Positions 14,171-63,055 of a stretch of 64,000 bases of DNA are shown piece after piece. A program made the translations under genes and the position numbers. The notes under the pieces are model-generated. The model was given only the letters and a program-made list of their open reading frames with translations, searched no databases and was not told the DNA's origin. The DNA lies in assembly GCA_030390025.1 (NCBI GenBank), contig CM059431.1:157978001-158042000 (forward strand), in the 5' to 3' direction. Positions within the stretch are counted from its first letter, which is position 1. Each line of letters starts with the position of its first letter. The stretch is from Squalus acanthias (Eukaryota).

Positions 14171-14464
14171 TAACCTAAGGATAAGGAGTAAGACATTTAG
14201 GACAGAGATGAGGAGGAATTTCTTCACCCAAAGAGTGGTGAACCTGTGGAATTCTCTACCACAGAAGGCAGTTGAGGCCAATTCATTAAGTATATTCAAG
14301 AAGGAATTAGATATATATCTTAAGGCTAAAGGGATCAAGGGTTATGGGGAGAAGGCAGGGACTGGGTAACGAATTTGGATGATAAGCCATGATCTCATTG
14401 AATGGCGGAGCAGGCTCGAGGGGCAAATGGCCTACTCCTGCTCCTATCTTCTATGATTCTATGA
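14171..14464 (+). mobile_element. CR1 LINE 3' end
   Basis: RRNFFTQRVVNLWNSLPQ..IKGYGEKAG, then 3' UTR and a (ctatgatt) tail. Confidence 0.85.
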
Positions 14465-15130
14465 TCTTTGTCCCTTGTTATCTGTGGACTTTTATCGTCC
14501 GATAATAAAGAGCTTTTATGATGAGCAATAAACTCGAATTGAGGAACCGGAACTGATTCCGCCTGCAGAACCAGGTTATGATGTGAGGTCTTCTGCATCG
14601 CAGATTGAGGTTTCGGTGGAAATGTAACTATAATTACCTCACAAACGTTCAACGATTTTGTATAAAAGATCAATAATTGATCATACCATTTAAATTTGAA
14701 GAGGCCGTGTAAGATTCAGATCGAGTCCTGCATGGAGATCAGGGCGGGGAGGGATTGCACTTTTCAGACTTAAGGCCGTCTTTATGACTGTGACGTGTAA
14801 CTGATCTTTACCCAGGGTGTGTTCATTAAACTGCTGCACCCACAACGCTAACTTATCCAGTCTCTCTGGAACCAGCATCAGGAACAGCAGCTCAAGGTAA
14901 TGACCCGGAATTTACCGAGCACTATTTCTTTTTAGAAATTAACTCATGAGCAATATCGTCTTTTAATAGTATAAACCGTGTAAATTTAACCTCAGACGAA
15001 AAAATACTTCTATGTCGAGTACATTTGAAATATATTGGTTATTTACGACGTATTTGTATAGAGTTAGAGGTCGAGAATTTTCAAAATATAACACAGCCCC
15101 AAATTAACAAATACATCCAATATTTCCAGC
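14463..15130. repeat. Low-copy duplicated block, copy 2 (truncated)
   Basis: Starts gatctttgtcccttgttatctgtg, matching position 93. The TATA equivalent has decayed to GATAAAAG. Confidence 0.8.
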
Positions 15131-24320: not shown

Positions 24321-25804
24321 ACATAGAAACATAGAAACATAGAAAATAGGTACAGGAGTAGACCATTCGGTCCTTCGAGCCTGCACCGCCATTCAATGCG
24401 TTCATGGCTGAACATGCTACCTCAGTACCCCATTCCTGCTTTCTCGCCATACCCCTTGATCCCCCTAGTTGTGAGTGTTATATCTAACTCCCTTTTGAAT
24501 ATATTTAGCGAACTGGCCTCAACAACCTTCTGTGGAAGAGAATTCCATAGATTCACCACTCTCTGGGTGAAGAAGTTCCTCCTCAGCTCAGTCCGAAATG
24601 GCTTCCCCTTAATCCTTAGACTGTGACCCCTGGTTCTAGTTTTCCCTACCATTGGGAACATTCTGCCCGCATCTAATTTGTCTAAACCAGTCAGGATTTT
24701 AAATGTCTCTATAAGATTCCCCCTCATTCTTCTGAACTCCAGAGGATACAAGTTCAGTTGACCCAATCTTTCTTGATATGTCAGTCCGGCCATCCCAGGA
24801 ATCAATCTAGTGAACCTTCGCTGCACTCCCTCAATAGCAAGAATGTCCTTCCTTAAGTTAGGAGACCAAAACTGCGCACAATACTCCAGGTGCGGCCTCT
24901 CCAAGGTCCTGTACAACTGCAGCATCACCTCCCTACTCCTGTACTCAAATCCCCTTACTATGAAGGCCATCATTCCGTTTGCTTTCTTGACTGCCTGCTG
25001 CACTTGCATTCCCACCTTCATTGACTGATGTACCATGATGCCCAGGTCTCGTTGCACCTCCCCTTTCCCTAATCTGCCACCATTCAGGTAATAGTCCGCC
25101 TCTCTATTTTTACCACCAAAGTGGATAACCTCACATTTATCCACATTGTACTTCATCTGCCATACATTTGCCCATTCACCCAACCTGTCCAAGTCACTCT
25201 GTAGCCTCCTAGCATCCTCCTCATTGTTCACACTGCCTCCCAATTTAGTGTCATCCGCAAATTTGGAGATATTACATTTAATCCCTTCGTCCAAATCATT
25301 AATATATAATGTAAACAGCTGGGGTCCCAGCACCGAACCCTGCGGTACCCCGCTGGTCACTGCCTGCCATTCTGAAAAGTACCCATTTACTCCTACTCTT
25401 TGTTTCCTGTGTGCCAACCAGTTCTCAATCCACGTCAACACATTACCCCCAATCCCATGTGCTTTAACTTTGCTCACCAATCTCTTGTGTGGAACCTTGT
25501 CGAAGGCCTTCTGAAAGTCCAAATACACCACATCTACTGGTTCCCCCCTGTCCATCCTATTGGAAACATCCTCAAAAAATTCCAGAAGATTTGTCAAGCT
25601 TGATTTCCCTTTCACAAATCCATGCTGACTTGGACCTATCAAGTCGCCACTTTCCAAATGGTCTGTTATGACATCTTTAATAATTGCTTCCATCATTTTA
25701 CCCACAACCGATGTCAGGCTGACCGGTATATAATTCCCTGCTTTCTCCCTCCCTCCTTTTTTAAAAAGAGGGGTTACATTGGCCACCCTCCACTCCATCG
25801 GAAC
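24321..25804 (-). mobile_element. Young 5'-truncated CR1 inserted antisense in the older CR1
   Basis: Open 458-aa RT/C-terminal ORF (24422-25798) and (catagaaa)n tail. Near-identical to 35054-36534. The host reads gagaacagctaac|gtagtac across the insertion. Confidence 0.93.
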
Positions 25805-32469: not shown

Positions 32470-33810
32470 ATAACAGTTTAAATGGTGAGAAATAAAGTCG
32501 AATCGAGGACACGAAACTGAATCCAGATAGATAAACCGATTTCCCTGCAAAGTATTCAGAATCGCAGAGTAACCATTGTTATCACACACAGAATTTATGA
32601 CTTTAATGAAAATAATCGTAATTTATCAGAACACTTTAATCCCAATGAGACTGTGTTTAATTCAGATCGAAACTTGCTCCAGAGAAAAGGCAGGAAGGGA
32701 TTGTACTGATCAGACTGAATCCCGGGTTTATGACTGTGTGTGCAACTGACCTTTAGCCAGGGTGTGTTCATTATCCTGCAGAACGCACAACGCTAATTTA
32801 GCCAGACTCTCGGGAACCAGAATCAGGATACGCAACACATATGAATGGACATATCGCCGTTGAATTCTGTCGATCTTCGATGATAGTGAAACTTTATATT
32901 ATATATAGGGGATGGGGTAAGAAAGGATTGCTTTTTTCAGAAATCAGTTTGCTGGAAGCAGGGGCATTAAACGGAGTAAAACTTCCAAATACATACACAG
33001 CCGCTGACGTTCTGCGGTTGTAAATAATATTTAAATAATTACTCTTCTATGACAACGTTACGACGAACAATTTAGAGGTCGAGACTTTTGAACACAAAAC
33101 GTAACTACTAACTTTCACCGAGTACCAAAGTTTCAAGCTATGGGTGTTTTGCCGTTTCACTCTCATTGAAATCAGGATACAAAACCGGGTGAAATGCAGT
33201 CTTTGTTCTCGAGGTGAGGTACGGTCTCCTGTTCTCCGGCATTCAAATCTTGCATCAGTGAAAAAATCCAGAAACGGTCATTTCTGGCACCACCCGAACT
33301 GAATATCGGAAAGCAGGTTATTGATGAGTGAATGTTGTTTGATGGCTCTATCGATTAGTCCATCCATCGCTTTGCTGATCATTATAAGGCAGCTGATACG
33401 TCAGTAATTGGCAGGATACAGTCTGATGTTGAATTTTTGGTTAGGACACAGCTGGTCATCCTTGTATATTATCCATCAGATGCCATGTCAGATGCACTAG
33501 ATTAGCTTGGCTTGGGGTGGGGAGAGCTAGTTATGAAGTTGAGCCCTTCTACAGCTAATGGTGGTATGTAGTCAAAACCAAAAGTATTCACTGTGTTCTG
33601 TGCATTTTTCTGCTTCTTAACATCAAGTGGATGGAACTAATATTTCAGGTAATGACTGTATGAGTGATGCAAAATCTCGATGATTCCCAATAGAATCATC
33701 CAATTGGCCATTTTGGCTGAAGACACTGTCACGCACTTCACTCTTCTCTCTTGAAATCACGTGCTGTTGTTACACTTATTTCAAGATAGAAACGTTCATA
33801 GAGTCGCATG
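32470..33810. repeat. Low-copy duplicated block, copy 3 (carries the empty Penelope site)
   Basis: Colinear with 136-1327 joined to 3920-4140. A single ccaaaagtattcact at 33578-33592 stands where copy 1 has the TSD pair. Confidence 0.85.
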
Positions 33811-35154: not shown

Positions 35155-38010
35155 TCAGTACCCCATTCCTGCTTTCTCGCCATACCCCTTGATCACCCTA
35201 GTTGTGAGTGTTATATCTAACTCCCTTTTGAATATATTTAGCGAACTGGCCTCAACAACCTTCTGTGAAAGAGAATTCCATAGATTCACCACTCTCTGGG
35301 TGAAGAAGTTCCTCCTCAGCTCAGTCCTAAATGGCTTCCCCTTAATCCTTAGACTGTGACCCCTGGTTCTAGTTTTCCCTACCATTGGGAACATTCTGCC
35401 CGCATCTAATTTGTCTAAACCAGTCAGGATTTCAAATGTCTCTATAAGATCCCCCCTCATTCTTCTGAACTCCAGAGGATACAAGTTCAGTTGACCCAAT
35501 CTTTCTTGATATGTCAGTCCGGCCATCCCAGGAATCAATCTAGTGAACCTTCGCTGCACTCCCTCAATAGCAAGAATGTCCTTCCTTAAGTTAGGAGACC
35601 AAAACTGCGCACAATACTCCAGGTGTGGCCTCACCAAGGCCCTGTACAACTGCAGCATCACCTCCCTACTCCTGTACTCAAATCCCCTTACTATGAAGGC
35701 CATCATTCCGTTTGCTTTCTTGACTGCCTGCTGCACTTGCATTCCCACCTTCAATGACTGATGTACCATGATGCCCAGGTCTCGTTGCACCTCCCCTTTC
35801 CCTAATCTGCCACCATTCAGGTAATAGTCCGCCTCTCTATTTTTACCACCAAAGTGGATAACCTCACATTTATCCACATTGTACTTCATCTGCCATACAT
35901 TTGCCCATTCACCCAACCTGTCCAAGTCACTCTGTAGCCTCCTAGCATCCTCCTCATTGTTCACACTGCCTCCCAATTTAGTGTCATCCGCAAATTTGGA
36001 GATATTACATTTAATCCCTTCGTCCAAATCATTAATATATAATGTAAACAGCTGGGGTCCCAGCACCGAACCCTGCGGTACCCCGCTGGTCACTGCCTGC
36101 CATTCTGAAAAGTACCCATTTACTCCTACTCTTTGTTTCCTGTGTGCCAACCAGTTCTCAATCCACGTCAACACATTACCCCCAATCCCATGTGCTTTAA
36201 CTTTGCTCACCAATCTCTTGTGTGGAACCTTGTCGAAGGCCTTCTGAAAGTCCAAATACACCACATCTACTGGTTCCCCCCTGTCCACCCTATTGGAAAC
36301 ATCCTCAAGAAATTCCAGAAGATTTGTCAAGCATGATTTCCCTTTCACAAATCCATGCTGACTTGGACCTATCATGTCGCCACTTTCCAAATGGTCTGTT
36401 ATGACATCTTTAATAATTGCTTCCATCATTTTACCCACAACCGATGTCAGGCTGACCGGTCTATAATTCCCTGCTTTCTCCCTCCCTCCTTTTTTAAAAA
36501 GAGGGGTTACATTGGCCACCCTCCACTCCATCGGAACTGATCCAGAGTCTAAGGAATGTTGGAAAATGATCGTCATTGAATCCACTATTTCCAAGACCAC
36601 CTCCTTAAGTACTCTGGGATGCAGACCATCAGGCCCCGGGGATTTTTCAGCCTTCAGTCCCATCAATTTTCCCAATACCTTTTCCCGACTAATAAGGATT
36701 TCCTTCAGCTCCTCCCTCTTACCAGATCCTCTGACCCCTTTTATTTCCGGCAGGTTGTGTGTGTCCTCCACAGTAAACACCGAACCAAAGTACTTGTTCA
36801 ATTGATCTGTCATTTCCTTGTTCCCCATTACGACTTCCCCTGTTTCCGACTGCAGGGGACCTACGTTTGTTTTTACTAACCTCTTTCTTTTTATATATTT
36901 ATAGAAGCTTTTGCTGTCCATTTTAATGTTCTCTGCAAGCTTCCTTTCATATTTTATTTTCCCTGCCCTAATCAAACCCTTCGTCCTCCTCTGCTGAGTT
37001 TTGAAGTTCTCCCATTCCCCGTGTTTGCTGCTACTTCTGGCCAATTTGTATGCAACTTCCTTGGTTTTAATACTATCCCTGATTTCCCTTGTTAGCCATG
37101 GTTGAGCCACCTTCCCTTTTTTATTTTTACGCCAGACCGGGATGTACAATTGTTGTAGTTCATCCATGCGATCTCTAAATGTCTGCCATTGCCCTTCCAC
37201 TGATAGCCCCTTAAATATCGCTTGCCAATTTAACCTCGCCAATTCACGCCTCATACCCTCAAAGTTGCCCTTATTTAAGTTCTGGACCATGGTCTCTGAC
37301 TTAACTGTTTCCTTCTCCATCCTAATGTAGAACTCCACCATACTATGGTCACTCTTCCCCAGGGGGCCTCGTACCACAAGATTGCTGATTAGTCCTTCCT
37401 CATTACACAACACCCAGTCCAGGATGGCCTCCCCTCGAGTTGGTTCCTCAACATATTGGTTTAGGAAACCATCCCTTAAACACTCCAGGAAATGCTCCTC
37501 CACCGTATTGCTTCCAGTTTGAGTAGCCCAATCTATATGCATATTAAAGTCACCCATGATAACTGCCGTGCCTTTTTTGCACGCACCTCTGATTTCCTGT
37601 TTCATACCCTCCCCCACCTCACTACTGCTGTTTGGAGGTCTGTACACAACTCCCACTAACGTTTTCTGCCCTTTGGTGTTCTGCAGCTCAACCCATATTG
37701 ATTCCACATCCTCCAAGCTGATGTCCTTCCTAGCTATTGCATTAATCTCCTCTTTAACCAGCAATGCTACCCCACCCCCTTTTCCTTTTATTCTATCCTT
37801 TCTGAATGTTGAATACCCCTGGATGTTCAGTTCCCAGCCTTGATTGTTCTGGAGCCACGTCTCTGTAATCCCAATCACATCGTATCCGTTAACATTTATT
37901 TGCACAGTCAATTCATCCACCTTATTACGGATACTCCTTGCATTAAGACACAGAGCCTTTAGGCTTGTTTTATTAACATCCTTTGTCCTTTTAGACTTAT
38001 GATTTAGCAT
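35155..38010 (-). CDS. Uninterrupted CR1 ORF2 (AP endonuclease + reverse transcriptase), 951 aa, in a young element spanning ~35054-38013
   Basis: LNARS, ITETW, YRPPN, MGDFN, SDH (endonuclease); [32 protein letters not shown] (RT). No stops. ORF1 and 5' UTR are absent. Confidence 0.93.
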   Translation of the reverse strand: MLNHKSKRTKDVNKTSLKALCLNARSIRNKVDELTVQINVNGYDVIGITETWLQNNQGWELNIQGYSTFRKDRIKGKGGGVALLVKEEINAIARKDISLEDVESIWVELQNTKGQKTLVGVVYRPPNSSSEVGEGMKQEIRGACKKGTAVIMGDFNMHIDWATQTGSNTVEEHFLECLRDGFLNQYVEEPTRGEAILDWVLCNEEGLISNLVVRGPLGKSDHSMVEFYIRMEKETVKSETMVQNLNKGNFEGMRRELARLNWQAIFKGLSVEGQWQTFRDRMDELQQLYIPVWRKNKKGKVAQPWLTREIRDSIKTKEVAYKLARSSSKHGEWENFKTQQRRTKGLIRAGKIKYERKLAENIKMDSKSFYKYIKRKRLVKTNVGPLQSETGEVVMGNKEMTDQLNKYFGSVFTVEDTHNLPEIKGVRGSGKREELKEILISREKVLGKLMGLKAEKSPGPDGLHPRVLKEVVLEIVDSMTIIFQHSLDSGSVPMEWRVANVTPLFKKGGREKAGNYRPVSLTSVVGKMMEAIIKDVITDHLESGDMIGPSQHGFVKGKSCLTNLLEFLEDVSNRVDRGEPVDVVYLDFQKAFDKVPHKRLVSKVKAHGIGGNVLTWIENWLAHRKQRVGVNGYFSEWQAVTSGVPQGSVLGPQLFTLYINDLDEGIKCNISKFADDTKLGGSVNNEEDARRLQSDLDRLGEWANVWQMKYNVDKCEVIHFGGKNREADYYLNGGRLGKGEVQRDLGIMVHQSLKVGMQVQQAVKKANGMMAFIVRGFEYRSREVMLQLYRALVRPHLEYCAQFWSPNLRKDILAIEGVQRRFTRLIPGMAGLTYQERLGQLNLYPLEFRRMRGDLIETFEILTGLDKLDAGRMFPMVGKTRTRGHSLRIKGKPFRTELRRNFFTQRVVNLWNSLSQKVVEASSLNIFKRELDITLTTRVIKGYGEKAGMGY

Positions 38011-38336
38011 GGCTCTCTCGCTATGAAGCTCAACATACCATTTGCCTTCTTAACCGACTGTTGCACATACATGCTTACCTTCAGCGACTGGTGCACATGG
38101 ACTCCCAGATCTCGTTACACTTCCCCTTTTCCCAATCTATTGCGGTTCAGATAATAATCTGTCTTCCTGTTTTTGCCACCAAAGTGGATAACCTCGCATT
38201 TATCCACATTATACTGCATCTGCCATGCATCTGCCCAATCATACAACCTGTTCAAATCATACTGGAGTTTCTCTGCATTCTCCTCAAAGCACACACGCTC
38301 ACCCAGCTTTGTGTCGTCTGCAAACTTAGAGATTTT

Positions 38337-41270: not shown

Positions 41271-43954
41271 TGTGGGGAGCACTGTGAGAACAGTGAGGAG
41301 TTGGATTAATGAGATCCAGTTCTAAAGGGCGGGGATGAGAGCAAGAACGTGATCCAGATGAGAAGATGGATCTCGTTCTCCCAGTGTTGGGCCTGGATTA
41401 GGCCGCTCATGCAATAATTTGAATGAGTCGCGCAGCCCTTAAAGGAGCCGCGCCCCCCAAAATGGCGGGTACATTGATGGGCTCATGGTCCATCAACACC
41501 TTGATTTCAAAAAGTTCATCCTCAAGTTGAATTCCATTCATGTCCTCACCCCTTGCTAGCTCGTAACCTGGGAGGGTAAGAACTGCTTGTTCTCTGAAAG
41601 CAGTAGTGTTAGCATTGTGAACTCTGGAGCCTGGCTGTCAAAATGAATGGATCAAATAAATATTACAAAGATATTGATTACTCAGGCAGGCAGGATCTAA
41701 TTACACATTGCAGAGAAACTGCTGGGTGAGTCTTGTCCTCCAAGTTGACAAATCAGAAATATTATCTTGACCTCCAATAGTCCAATCAGAAATTTGGTGT
41801 TGCAAATGGACACATCCTAATTTTAAACATGAGTTCGATAGATTTTTGCTAGTGAATCATATTAATGGAAACGGACAAAAGGTGATTTGATGGAGTTAAG
41901 ATACAGATAAGCAATTGTCTCATTGAATGGCGGAACATGATCAAGGTTCTGAACTGCCTGCTCCTTTTACAAAAATGACGGTAAAAAATCGATGGATAGC
42001 AACTTAATATCGGAGGCCTCCATTCGACCCATATTTCCTGTGCTGGCGGACAGGAAGAGCTAGACAATTAGTTCCACTCTCCTGCTATTTCGCCACATGC
42101 ATGAAATGAAGGTACTAATACAATTCTGCCGTTTACTATATTTGTACCTACAGTTCCAGAACCAAAACACCAGGTTAGAGAATCTGGAAACCGAGGCCGA
42201 GGAATAACAGAGCCTCTCCGTGAATGCTACATCATTAACATAGCTTTGAAATTCTACTAAGCTACATATTGATACATGGCGAAGTCTCTAAGGACGCATT
42301 TTCAACATCCCCTGTGAATTCTGATAACGGGAAGAATCCATCCATAACTATTGGGGTCAAGTTAAGCTTTTGGCGCCAATGTAAAATGGACGATATGCGA
42401 TATCGAGAGGTTTATCTCCGAGCCACTATCGCCCGTCTAACAGTATCAGGAAAAGCAAAAATTACTCCAAGTGGGTGCTGGAACAGTCCACTCCCTATTA
42501 GAAGGCCACAGTCAAGCGGGTACATGATCAAATCCAATTTCTGTTTGAGCAAATGATTAGCGGAAACGTGGGAATAAATTTCCAGTGTATATCGGCTCAT
42601 GATGCGGACAGGTTTAGGCTGGATAAGTTCGCAATCCAACTTGCTATACCTCTTGGTCATTCATTTAGATGTTAAATTGTTTTTCTTTCATTTTAGCCAC
42701 CTGCTTGATCTTGGCGCTAAGGGGAACTAATTGCTTAGAAATTTGTTAGGTGGTGGTTATTGATTCGGCCGCCACAGTAGACGGCCCCTGCAACATTCCT
42801 GTCAATAAAGGGAAGGGATTACTTTTAGTAGTTGACAAATTACATTCAGATAAATCACAGAAGAATCCCGATGAAGTGAGGAACTTAAAGAGGAGGCATC
42901 GGTGCCGATGGGGAGAAAGGATGGTAAAGCAACAGCAATGTGAATTATAAGAAGGAAGTGAAGCATGGAATGTCAAAAAGGAAAAAAGATGAAGGGGCCA
43001 GTAAACTGCAGGAAGTAGCGTATGGAAGTAAAGCGAAGTATGAAAGAAGATGGCGTAGATCCGCTGGTAGCTGGGCTTAAAATACAAACGGAATAATGAG
43101 GAGCGTTGTTTATTGCAGAACACCTGAGTGGTGAAAAAGGTACTGAAGCATGAACGGAGTGACTGAATAACCTCGCCAGCGGTAGAAGCCTAATGTGGTC
43201 TCTGATCGCAAAGGATGCTACTTTCTTTATTCTGCTTCAGGCAATAAGTAACAATGAGAAATTCCAATAAGTACCAGGCACGGCAAAGTAATTTAAATCT
43301 GATTCATATCTGCAACATTTATTCTTCATTGTGGAGTGTTTATCTGCAACGTATTCTAAAGCTCATCTTCAGCTTCCAGCCATTTGGAGTAAAAGTATTC
43401 CCCTACCCCTCCATTAGTCTAATCCCGTTACTTTATGGTAAGCTTGATTCCTCTGTTGACAGGATCGGCTTTGATTGTTGTGATAACGTTTGAATTCGTA
43501 TATTTGAAACACGGCTATTGATTCATAAGTAGTAGGGAAATCGAATGAACAAAGTTTAGCCGCCTGAACAGTTCGTAAAAATGCCGGTAAAGCCGCGGAT
43601 TTAAAAGTAATAGTATATTTAGTCACAAAATAACAATGTACAATTAAAGCACGAACGATTGCTAATTATACATTTAAAAGACTTCAAGTGTCACTGAAGA
43701 GACTTCAACTTAATAGCGGATTTCATAACGCTTCCGGTTCATTCAGTATTTTAATCAATGGTTCATATATTTCTAACAGCAGTTATATAATAAAAGTTAA
43801 TTAGAATGAGTGGGTATTTGGTGGGGAATCAAGAGCAAGCGCATATCTCTAAAAGTACATCCAACTCTTGTCGGCAAATAACTTGGGAAAATGCAGCTCC
43901 TGCCTCTAAGCAGACCAATCTTGTAGCAGAAGCAAGCAGCTGCAGCAGTGAATT

Positions 43955-43965
43955 GTTTCGATTTC
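43955..43965 (-). promoter_or_regulatory. ISRE/IRF-element-like motif upstream of the CARD-array gene
   Basis: gtttcgatttc reads GAAATCGAAAC on the minus strand (GAAANNGAAA consensus). CCAAT motifs lie nearby at ~43915 and ~44001. Confidence 0.3.
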
Positions 43966-44422
43966 AATGATAACAGGAACATCTCAAACGAGTCAGAACC
44001 CAATAGGAGAACTAAATGGCGATATCCGAATAAGTATTCGTTCGTATATATTACAGATTCTTTATTGCTGTGTGAGAATAATGCTAACTTTTGAACTAAT
44101 AGATGAAAATAAGTGCAGAGTCAACCCAGCCACAGTTCGCATTCTTCTCTGATAAACCTCTAGGTGAACACCTTATAAACCCGTTAATTAGGCAAAGTGT
44201 AGAAATGCACAAGATTCCGATTACCTGACAAAGAAAAACCGTGAAAACAGTAGAAGATATTAAAAAGTAAACTGAACAATGCGCTACGCAAACGATGAAC
44301 CGAAGTTAATGCGTCTGGAGCTTTTATAACTGGTTTAGATTGTTTAGATTGTCAATGAATCCGTGAGTAACAACAGCTCAACAGTTGTTCTTTAATTTAC
44401 AGTGATTGACGATATTGCAAGA

Positions 44423-44630
44423 ATGTTCCGACGATACAGTATATTTTTTGTAATACTGCTGGGACTATTAAGAGACGTTTTGCCTGATTCTTCGATAAAG
44501 CAGACACATGATCTCAGAAATGATGACAACCCGCTGGGTAAGGAAAACAATGCGTGTACTTCTCCGGGCATTAATGATGCAGGAAATACAAATAGTGAAG
44601 AAGAGAGTTACATTTCCGATGGAAAAAGAG
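44423..44630 (+). CDS. Leader exon of the CARD-array gene (MFRRYSIFFVILLGLLRDVLPDSS...ISDGKR), hydrophobic N-terminus plus hydrophilic linker
   Basis: Acceptor tttaatttacAG ends at 44402; ATG at 44423 with A at -3; donor AGAG|GTACAT after 44630 is phase 1 and matches the next exon. An alternative phase-1 donor CTGG|GTAAGG follows 44537. Confidence 0.55.
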
Positions 44631-47773: not shown

Positions 47774-47934
47774 ATAATAAAACGTTACGGATGCTGAGGA
47801 GCTACACGGATTTGCAGCTGCGGAGAATTATCGAGTGCCACCGTCAGATTCTGGAACATTCAATTCAAGAATTCGTGGAGACTGTTAGTCAGTCGCTTTT
47901 TGATGTAAAACTATTTACTGAAGCAGATCATGAG
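47774..47934 (+). CDS. CARD-like module 1, exon A (DNKTLRMLRSYTDLQLRRIIECHRQILEHSIQEFVETVSQSLFDVKLFTEADHE)
   Basis: ttcAG| ... GAG|GTATGC; 161 bp; phase 1 to 0; open; length and splice sites conserved in three copies. Confidence 0.85.
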
Positions 47935-51072: not shown

Positions 51073-51271
51073 AAAATCAAACATCTCGCTGAAAGTCAGC
51101 GCAAATACGACGCTTCCAGACACATTTTCGATATCGTGCTGGAAAAGGGAGCTCGGGGAAGAAGAACAATCTGGAACATATTTCTTCAACTGCAGAACGA
51201 CGAAGCCTATCTGAAGGAGATAATTTCAGAGATACAGAACAGAGATACATGGTTAGAAAATAATCTGGAAG
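51073..51271 (+). CDS. CARD-like module 1, exon B (KIKHLAESQRKYDASRHIFDIVLEKGARGRRTIWNIFLQLQNDEAYLKEIISEIQNRDTWLENNLE)
   Basis: Poly-T AG| ... GAAG|GTATGT; 199 bp; phase 0 to 1; CARD-like A.R..FD.VLEKG motif. Not listed in the ORF track. Confidence 0.85.
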
Positions 51272-54134: not shown

Positions 54135-54295
54135 ATACTAAAACTTTACTGATGCTGAAGAACTACACGGATATCCAGCTGCGGAGAATTATCGAGTGCT
54201 ACCGTCAGAGACTAGAACATTCAATTGAAGAATTCGTGGAGTCTGTCAGTCAGAATCTTTTTGAAGTAAAAGTGTTTACTGAAACAGATCATGAG
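54135..54295 (+). CDS. CARD-like module 2, exon A (DTKTLLMLKNYTDIQLRRIIECYRQRLEHSIEEFVESVSQNLFEVKVFTETDHE)
   Basis: ttcAG| ... GAG|GTATGC; 161 bp; open. Confidence 0.85.
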
Positions 54296-59848: not shown

Positions 59849-60047
59849 AAAATCAGATCTCTCGCTGAAAGTCAGCGCAGAAACGACGCTTCCAGATACA
59901 TTTTCAATACCGTGCTGGAAAAGGGAGCTCGGGGAAAAAGGAGAATGTGGAACATATTTCTTCAGCTTCAGAACACCAAACCCCAGCTGAAAGCAATACT
60001 TTCAGAGATACCGAACAATGATACATGGTTAGAAAATAATCTGGAAG
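59849..60047 (+). CDS. CARD-like module 2, exon B (KIRSLAESQRRNDASRYIFNTVLEKGARGKRRMWNIFLQLQNTKPQLKAILSEIPNNDTWLENNLE)
   Basis: Poly-T AG| ... GAAG|GTATGT; 199 bp; open. Confidence 0.85.
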
Positions 60048-62894: not shown

Positions 62895-63055
62895 ATACTA
62901 AAACATTACTGATGCTGAAGAGCTACACGGATATCCAGCTGCGGAGAATTATGAAGCACCACCGTCAGATTCTAGAACATTCAATTGAAGAATTCGTGGA
63001 GACTGTTAGTCAGACGCTTTTTGATGTAAAAGTATTTACTGAAACTGATTATGAG
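62895..63055 (+). CDS. CARD-like module 3, exon A (DTKTLLMLKSYTDIQLRRIMKHHRQILEHSIEEFVETVSQTLFDVKVFTETDYE)
   Basis: ttcAG| ... GAG|GTATGC; 161 bp; open. The partner exon B is expected beyond the window end. Confidence 0.85.

Follow-up and report, generated by a model that had tools for sequence, protein, structure and literature searches.

MAVS carries one CARD and a C-terminal anchor and resides in the mitochondrial outer membrane. CARD19/BinCARD is described as combining a CARD with a mitochondrial anchor (PMC8997538). Among NLRs, anthozoan proteins with 3-5 N-terminal TMs have been reported (PMC5094078), and sea cucumber AjNLRC4 is presented as a TM-bearing NLR (PMC8699970). The sections of PMC8455134 drawn on here treat NLRs as intracellular and leave TM, signal and poly-CARD forms unmentioned. 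Searches of the open-access literature, in its main texts, brought up no single-pass membrane NLR of vertebrates and no description of shark NLRs that are membrane-anchored, secreted or poly-CARD.

The locus compared here with these systems lies in a stretch of 64,000 nucleotides of Squalus acanthias (the window; C7:157,978,001-158,042,000 within a 3.7-Gb genome). It belongs to a cluster of shark-type NLR/CARD genes, many members of which are broken. The exon of interest, E0, encodes a short hydrophobic stretch and has the following parts.

44403..44537, + strand: exon E0, type I, 135 nt, phase 1-1, ending at the conserved donor G|GTAAGG; the frame is open to the 44537 donor in all five type I copies
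44423..44425, + strand: candidate start ATG with A in position -3; it corresponds by homology to the family TM exon's Met
44441..44470, + strand: hydrophobic core of 10 residues, what is left of a TM helix that measures 18-25 residues in types II/III
44538..44630, + strand: possible exon extension up to a weaker donor, GAG|GTACAT, the one that type II copies retain; in type I this part is likely intronic

The acceptor TTTACAG has its last base at 44402, and the exon begins at 44403 in phase 1 with the reading frame already open from this acceptor. The E0 peptide includes 12 uncharged residues; over 10 residues its highest Kyte-Doolittle mean is 3.36, and over 19 residues its best hydropathy is 1.65, versus 1.9-3.1 in types II/III. 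The N-side charge is +3, amino terminus counted, ahead of the 10-residue core. The usual signal-peptide h-region is given in the relevant part of PMC8584900 as 7-15 residues, and the window E0 has both the basic n-region and an h-region of that length, as in a cleavable ER signal peptide. A rule-based scan for the -3/-1 small-residue cleavage site, with the rule as in that part of PMC8584900, found none within 12 residues past the core of the window E0. By the same scan one of the five type I copies has such a site, the window copy being among the four without it. The earlier note had described a signal-like peptide with a cleavage site that is not textbook; the latter caveat holds, and the quoted peptide, the acceptor at 44403, the frame open from it and the phase fit to the next exon were all confirmed in the sequence.

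The donors after 44537 and 44630 are both in phase 1 and both fit the phase-1 acceptor of the first CARD exon, A1, at 47774. The earlier note had ended the exon at 44630 and named 44537 as the other possible donor; conservation favours 44537. The 44537-type donor G|GTAAG is kept in 16 of the 20 copies examined (5/5 of type I) and scores 3.9 versus 1.2 for 44630 on a crude weight matrix. In its 3' part the long exon diverges near the intron level (16% versus 11-13%), and the frameshift of one type I copy falls entirely past the early donor. Because 44537 is conserved and higher-scoring, and the frameshift lies only past it, 44403-44537 is the likelier exon and 44630 is not the preferred donor. 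Of the earlier exon end, the phase fit to 47774 stands, but the conserved, stronger donor is the one at 44537.

The start codon was weighed against chance. Among the ATGs in 956 kb of scanned strand (counting both strands of the window gene region and of one paralogue region), three have a strong hydrophobic stretch and a phase-1 donor, and only the one at 44423 also has an acceptor and a purine at -3. The E0 ATG is, however, the Met codon common to the paralogues, even to copies where this Met would be internal, and as an inherited Met it is therefore in itself no evidence for a start.

A 20-nt pattern finds 21 E0-type copies, all in C7:154.0-159.3 Mb or on contig C2044, with no control matches. 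Twenty of them were analysed jointly and the last was seen separately. The 20 copies fall into three clades: type III (n=11), type II (n=4) and type I (n=5, including the window copy). The type I copies form one clade with a support of 0.999, and the five therefore count as one event. Type III exons encode an 18-24-residue helix, mostly with a Cys-Cys end, followed by a basic cluster, and sit 5' or 3' of CARD arrays. One gene has both, flanking five CARDs; its 3' copy occupies the position expected for an A exon, which suggests a later duplication. The idea that type III copies are terminal exons only was dropped, as the conserved phase-1 donor and the 5' copies contradict it. Type III TM exons were observed on both sides of CARD arrays at C7:155,216,221-155,300,300 and in three similar pairs, and no NACHT was found within 100 kb downstream of the examined doubly flanked array (five CARDs).

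Type II exons encode an 18-25-residue helix and lie either between CARD units or right after a type I exon, with the last CARD unit(s) still to follow; in 3/4 a NACHT is found downstream. The type I exon, with its core of 10-13 residues, is always the most 5' coding exon found (5/5). The phase-1 donor G|GTAAG is present in 5/5 type I and 11/11 type III copies and absent from type II, whose only remaining site is the equivalent of 44630, and even this has been lost from one type II copy. Homology reaches into the intron.

43883..44305, + strand: intron block homologous to sequence upstream of type II and 5'-type III copies, 69-74% identity, no exon-like pattern

Judged by these alignments, the window E0 arose from the family TM exon by duplication, shortening and charge reversal. 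Both deletions in one type I copy are in frame (3 and 9 nt), and intron gaps around CARD exons are out of frame in 33/38. Considering substitutions only, the retained frame of E0 does not reach significance (P0=0.10). Among type I copies pN (0.098) exceeds pS (0.062), for which relaxed selection could be an alternative source. Downstream parts are broken or missing in 3/5 type I genes, and the window gene's are as well.

The types differ most plainly in charge and core length. Flanking charge, taken as C minus N, ranges from -2 to -5 across the five type I copies (-4 in the window copy) and from 0 to +5 across the 15 copies of types II/III, and the core measures 10-13 residues in the former (5/5) and 18-25 in the latter (15/15). 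According to the part of PMC2139883 used here, long helices favour N-terminal translocation and short ones C-terminal translocation, with flanking charges adding to the effect. Types II/III are read as anchors holding the CARDs cytosolic. With its short core and positive N-side, type I is predicted by the same rule (PMC2139883) to favour C-terminal translocation, and would be a signal translocating whatever follows. An N-out/C-in signal anchor (type III in the topological sense) has a long helix and a more positive C-side, and the window copy has neither. The signal-like N-terminus proposed earlier is thus supported by the short core and basic N-side, as far as that source goes (PMC2139883), but its origin from a full-length TM exon had been missed. 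Because the -3/-1 site is absent from the window copy, an uncleaved type II anchor would be as likely as secretion for its product.

The reversal was accompanied by accelerated change. Types I and II differ at 33/91 sites in the segment that reaches from the Met through the whole polar region versus 65/574 in the flanking introns (P=2e-8). When polarised with type III, the type I branch carries 17/90 changes versus 24/565 intronic ones (P=5e-6), and the type II branch is not significant (P=0.22). Per pair, 18-26 codons have an amino-acid change versus 0-3 with silent changes only, and the type I excess is mostly in the polar region past the core (11/17). Local conversion from an unseen paralogue, or misalignment near the deletion, could have inflated the excess divergence.

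Nine A+B exon pairs lie behind E0, the later pairs outside the window.

47774..47934, + strand: exon A1, first part of CARD unit 1, phase 1-0, holding an in-frame Met
51073..51271, + strand: exon B1, second part of CARD unit 1, phase 0-1
54135..54295, + strand: exon A2
59849..60047, + strand: exon B2
62895..63055, + strand: exon A3
past the window: exons B3 to B9, reaching about 47.5 kb past its end

All 18 CARD exons have AG/GT sites, without a frameshift or a stop. For at least 103 substitutions, about 8.8 disablers (some 3.5 frameshifts and 5.3 stops) would be expected under neutral drift, and none was observed (P about 1.5e-4, rough). The pooled dN/dS of the CARD exons is 0.98; together with the intact frames, this indicates that the frame is kept while residues change freely. 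The script-spliced frame measures 1,149 residues to B9 with the 44630 donor and 31 fewer with 44537. Only 3 N-glycosylation sequons occur in the 1,149 residues, which was counted against the lumenal or secreted reading. The Met in A1 is in frame, lies upstream of the portion that folds as a CARD in a relative, and has C at -3; exon skipping or leaky scanning would from there give a cytosolic form. A pattern search found a single E0 in the window gene and no second copy after B9, and the gene's layout is not that of tail-anchored CARD proteins, with a TM C-terminal to the CARD.

The fold was judged on a relative, Cetorhinus XP_078390056.1. In its AlphaFold model, residues 158-262 match the CARDs of SP100 (Z 12.4, rmsd 1.9, 96 aligned), ARC (11.9), NLRC4 (11.7) and NOD1 (11.2), and Foldseek gives a probability of 0.99 to the NOD1 and ARC CARDs, but with E-values of 0.9-1.3. 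On this model of the relative, as opposed to the spliced product of the window, the A/B unit is a CARD with the six-helix fold. Pfam PF00619 gave no match for the half-domain exons A1 and B1, and profiles of these half-domain exons found no CARD among PDB sequences. Relatives score 30.3 bits with PF00619 (P0004; cut-off 23.9), 22.9 (P0005, which is XP_078390056.1) and 23.4 (P0003). Both the CARD-like nature of the downstream domains and the poly-CARD architecture, as first proposed, are borne out by the fold of the units in this relative and by the intact array of nine pairs.

An unseen coding exon upstream of E0 had been raised as a caveat, and none was found. No A/B exon occurs in the 174 kb upstream of E0, and the previous gene upstream is a broken NACHT-LRR ending about 138 kb before it. 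A scan for ATG, hydrophobic stretch and donor revealed no other signal-like exon between E0 and an upstream element, U, in three genes. No Ig or ectodomain exon was detected upstream by ORF listing, by cross-paralogue blast of type I against type III upstream regions, or by genome search, and the genome search with the Mustelus N-terminal part gave a best E of 3.3, on another contig.

14460..14896, + strand: element U, candidate promoter plus putative non-coding first exon, with the donor AAG|GTAATG

Conservation of U falls off at an aligned CAAG|GT donor, present in 12/14 aligned copies, and its indels in these 14 copies are not multiples of three, which gives it a non-coding look. It lies 17-49 kb upstream of 5/5 type I E0 genes, and upstream of all four 5'-type III copies checked (4 of 7 were checked). 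There are 298 U candidates genome-wide, many on C29, C30 and C7:137-143 Mb, and the window itself holds U-type copies at 85-527, 14460-14896 and 32472-33590. At three sampled clusters on C29/C30 no CARD or NACHT was found within 30 kb of U. The element may serve another gene family too, and its role as an NLR-specific first exon is only partly borne out; Rfam left it unmatched. The region also contains a LINE ORF2-like open frame of 964 residues (35155-38049, minus strand), with a near-identical part at 24321-25804; LINE copies nearby are 95-99% identical, suggesting a recently active retroelement.

Neither E0 nor U was found in the 40-50 kb around the presumed starts of three other CARD arrays of the cluster, whose true 5' ends possibly lie farther away. 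The TM exon thus appears not to be carried by every array. At C7:153,798,500 a long CARD array is immediately followed by an open NACHT, and the 50 kb ahead of its first observed B exon yielded neither E0 nor U. In the window, E0 is likely the first coding exon of a NACHT-less nine-CARD gene.

The NACHT-LRR sequences downstream are dead.

61-62.5 kb past the window end, inverted: broken NACHT
about 84-88 kb past the window end, + strand: broken NACHT-LRR

The + strand NACHT, 36 kb behind B9, contains 5 frameshifts and 4 stops, and one of the two LRR exons behind it has a stop. The inverted duplicate of this dead segment is 5.9% diverged and has five disabling changes in common with it; the NACHT therefore died early. 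This broken NACHT may not be the window gene's own. If B9 were spliced to its exon, a stop would follow after 34 codons, upstream of the LRR exons, and the transcript would likely be an NMD target. An intact NACHT and in-frame C-terminal LRRs are both absent from the product, which, having no intact NACHT, is not an NLR by membership, although it appears to derive from the shark-expanded NLRs. A neighbouring NLR on the minus strand, 120-138 kb past the window end, has a NACHT frame that is open over 587 residues, together with two B-like CARD exons that are divergent; one of these gives a weak match to the Pfam CARD (E 0.0034).

A sister gene on contig C2044, about 95% identical to the window in the upstream region, is apparently intact.

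C2044:261,778-288,800: sister gene, candidate type I membrane NLR with two copies of one TM exon (short signal-like, then full TM)

It runs from U through the type I exon and the type II TM exon to a single CARD, a NACHT in an open frame (PF05729 E 7.5e-33) and a pair of LRR exons free of stops. The predicted product, with a signal-like stretch, a short acidic loop, a TM and a cytosolic CARD-NACHT-LRR part, is a candidate for a coherent type I topology. In the three remaining type I genes, which are partly decayed, CARD exons separate the type I exon from the type II exon. One minus-strand gene, C7:157,363,496-157,340,300, consists of a type I exon, two CARD units and a type II TM exon without a donor, which reads through to a stop. 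Its CARDs would be lumenal if the first exon is a signal.

The preferred reading, held tentatively and at a little under an even chance, is that E0 acts as an ER signal sequence and that the nine-CARD chain is lumenal or secreted, either as an uncleaved type II anchor or through poor cleavage and secretion. A possible history begins with duplication of a unit of TM exon and CARD in a TM-CARD-NACHT-LRR receptor. The upstream TM copy would then have been remodelled into a signal for the downstream TM, giving the type I topology of C2044, and in the window lineage the second TM exon and the NACHT would have disappeared, with amplification of the CARD. The conversion from anchor to signal probably served a downstream TM first and was inherited by the window gene after that loss. 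In the present gene, U would be spliced to E0 (donor 44537) and then to A1, with translation from 44423; SRP would recognise the short core and the chain would be oriented N-in/C-out. The tandem CARDs, about 1,120 residues in all, would then lie outside the cytosol and could form a non-signalling CARD scaffold or decoy.

Other readings compete with an ER signal. E0 might be translated and yet be too weak or mis-oriented to translocate, serving as a membrane tether of a cytosolic nine-CARD chain or having no effect, so that the product, like its TM-anchored relatives, works in the cytosol as a CARD scaffold or decoy. The cytosol is where CARDs act, the ancestral exon of types II/III holds them there, the 19-residue hydropathy falls below the range of those types, and E0 has no cleavage site. 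Against these points stand the strong hydrophobicity of the 10-residue core, inside the h-region range of the cited part of PMC8584900, and charges that oppose N-out/C-in; this account is judged unlikely, though not strongly so. That E0 is a vestige, skipped or scanned through, with a soluble cytosolic poly-CARD protein starting at the A1 Met, would suit the symmetric phase 1-1, the position of that Met upstream of the CARD-folding part and the non-significant frame retention. It is an improbable account, given the accelerated amino-acid change, the deletions confined to in-frame ones up to the early donor, the splice sites kept in 5/5 copies and the C at -3 of the A1 Met.

There are two further accounts. 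A decaying NLR pseudogene, in which E0 and the CARD array are intact only through recent copying, would be in keeping with the damaged NACHT and LRR exon, the many broken cluster members and a CARD dN/dS of about 1. Since the NACHT died early, yet the 18 CARD exons took their substitutions without a disabler, this is considered rather improbable. E0 might instead be internal, behind an unseen coding exon with a true signal peptide or ectodomain as in Mustelus, and its stretch an eroded internal TM. The frame open from the phase-1 acceptor points that way, as do a B exon about 2 kb upstream in 4/11 type III copies, a B exon as the nearest upstream coding exon found in 3/4 type II copies, and the Mustelus model, where about 55 signal and ectodomain residues precede the TM. 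The exon scan, the upstream comparison of types I and III and the genome search described above all failed to find such an exon, and this account is regarded as very doubtful.

Should the nine-CARD product prove lumenal or secreted, an extracellular CARD protein would, to our knowledge, be described for the first time. One genome preserves graded states of one exon, namely a long anchor before or after CARDs, an internal anchor and a short signal-like form, and these states make both the conversion of an anchor to a signal and the flip of a domain across the membrane testable. In its widest form, the preferred reading would describe a shark extracellular CARD class, in which an anchor exon was converted under positive selection to a signal, giving type I membrane NLRs (C2044), lumenal-CARD receptors (sister genes) and a secreted or lumenal nine-CARD chain that binds released CARD filaments or acts as a decoy; taken as a whole, this is doubtful. 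If the product is neither lumenal nor secreted, the locus still documents shuffling of TM, CARD and NACHT modules in shark NLR genes.

A profile search returned 80 proteins, including some spurious repeats, and the ten relatives checked by name all belong to sharks, rays or a chimaera. Of 82 proteins compared, two have an N-terminal stretch that is strongly hydrophobic, Mustelus XP_078087540.1 and Cetorhinus XP_078390056.1, both automatic gene models. Against the type II/III exon profile, the TMs of these two rank first once self-matches are set aside, but the matches are weak (E 0.017 and 0.014, respectively). Word-indexed protein searches with E0 and with B1 gave no match, and the one with the Mustelus N-terminal region retrieved only the Mustelus protein itself. 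The ESM Atlas had no usable match for residues 30-255 of XP_078087540.1 or for XP_078390056.1, and no printed description of the Mustelus protein was found. A myristoylation-like N-terminus (MG..S/T) was seen in 6/82 proteins (P0004, P0032, P0039, P0047, P0048, P0054), a possible second membrane-attachment route in shark and ray NLRs.

Mustelus asterias XP_078087540.1 ('NLRP3-like') has three A/B CARD-like units, 51-53% and 38-39% identical to A1 and B1, respectively, and, like the TM-exon family, a TM with Cys-Cys and a basic cluster directly ahead of the CARDs. Unlike the window gene, in which the shortened exon is accompanied only by nine CARDs and a dead NACHT, it has a full TM, NACHT, LRR and a separate signal-like stretch with a short ectodomain. 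The predicted type I topology of the C2044 sister resembles this protein. Cetorhinus maximus XP_078390056.1 (uncharacterized) is similar in its short N-terminal hydrophobic stretch, tandem CARDs and lack of a NACHT, and its second CARD unit is 52% and 44% identical to A1 and B1. It differs in having two CARDs and a C-terminal TM (E0 profile E 0.014), and its N-terminus gave no alignment to E0. Its layout is that of the C7:157,363,496-157,340,300 gene.

Among described systems, the whale shark NLRP-related expansion, in the part of PMC8455134 used, is likewise a shark-expanded NLR family and probably the same broad group, a placement made without a tree test. The invertebrate TM NLRs, as portrayed in the relevant parts of PMC5094078 and PMC8699970, are also NLR-family proteins fixed to membranes, but they are multi-pass or have an Ig ectodomain, and those parts describe no single TM exon before CARDs and no NACHT-less poly-CARD protein. 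MAVS and CARD19 join a CARD to an anchor without a NACHT and in this match the 3' type III paralogues; from the window gene they differ, on the CARD19 account cited at the outset, by one CARD and a C-terminal anchor versus a short N-terminal hydrophobic part. Osteoprotegerin, going by the portion of PMC2684955 consulted, shares with the preferred reading of the window gene death-fold domains in a secreted, signal-peptide protein; its two death domains stand behind TNFR cysteine-rich repeats, it has no CARDs, and its origin is unrelated.
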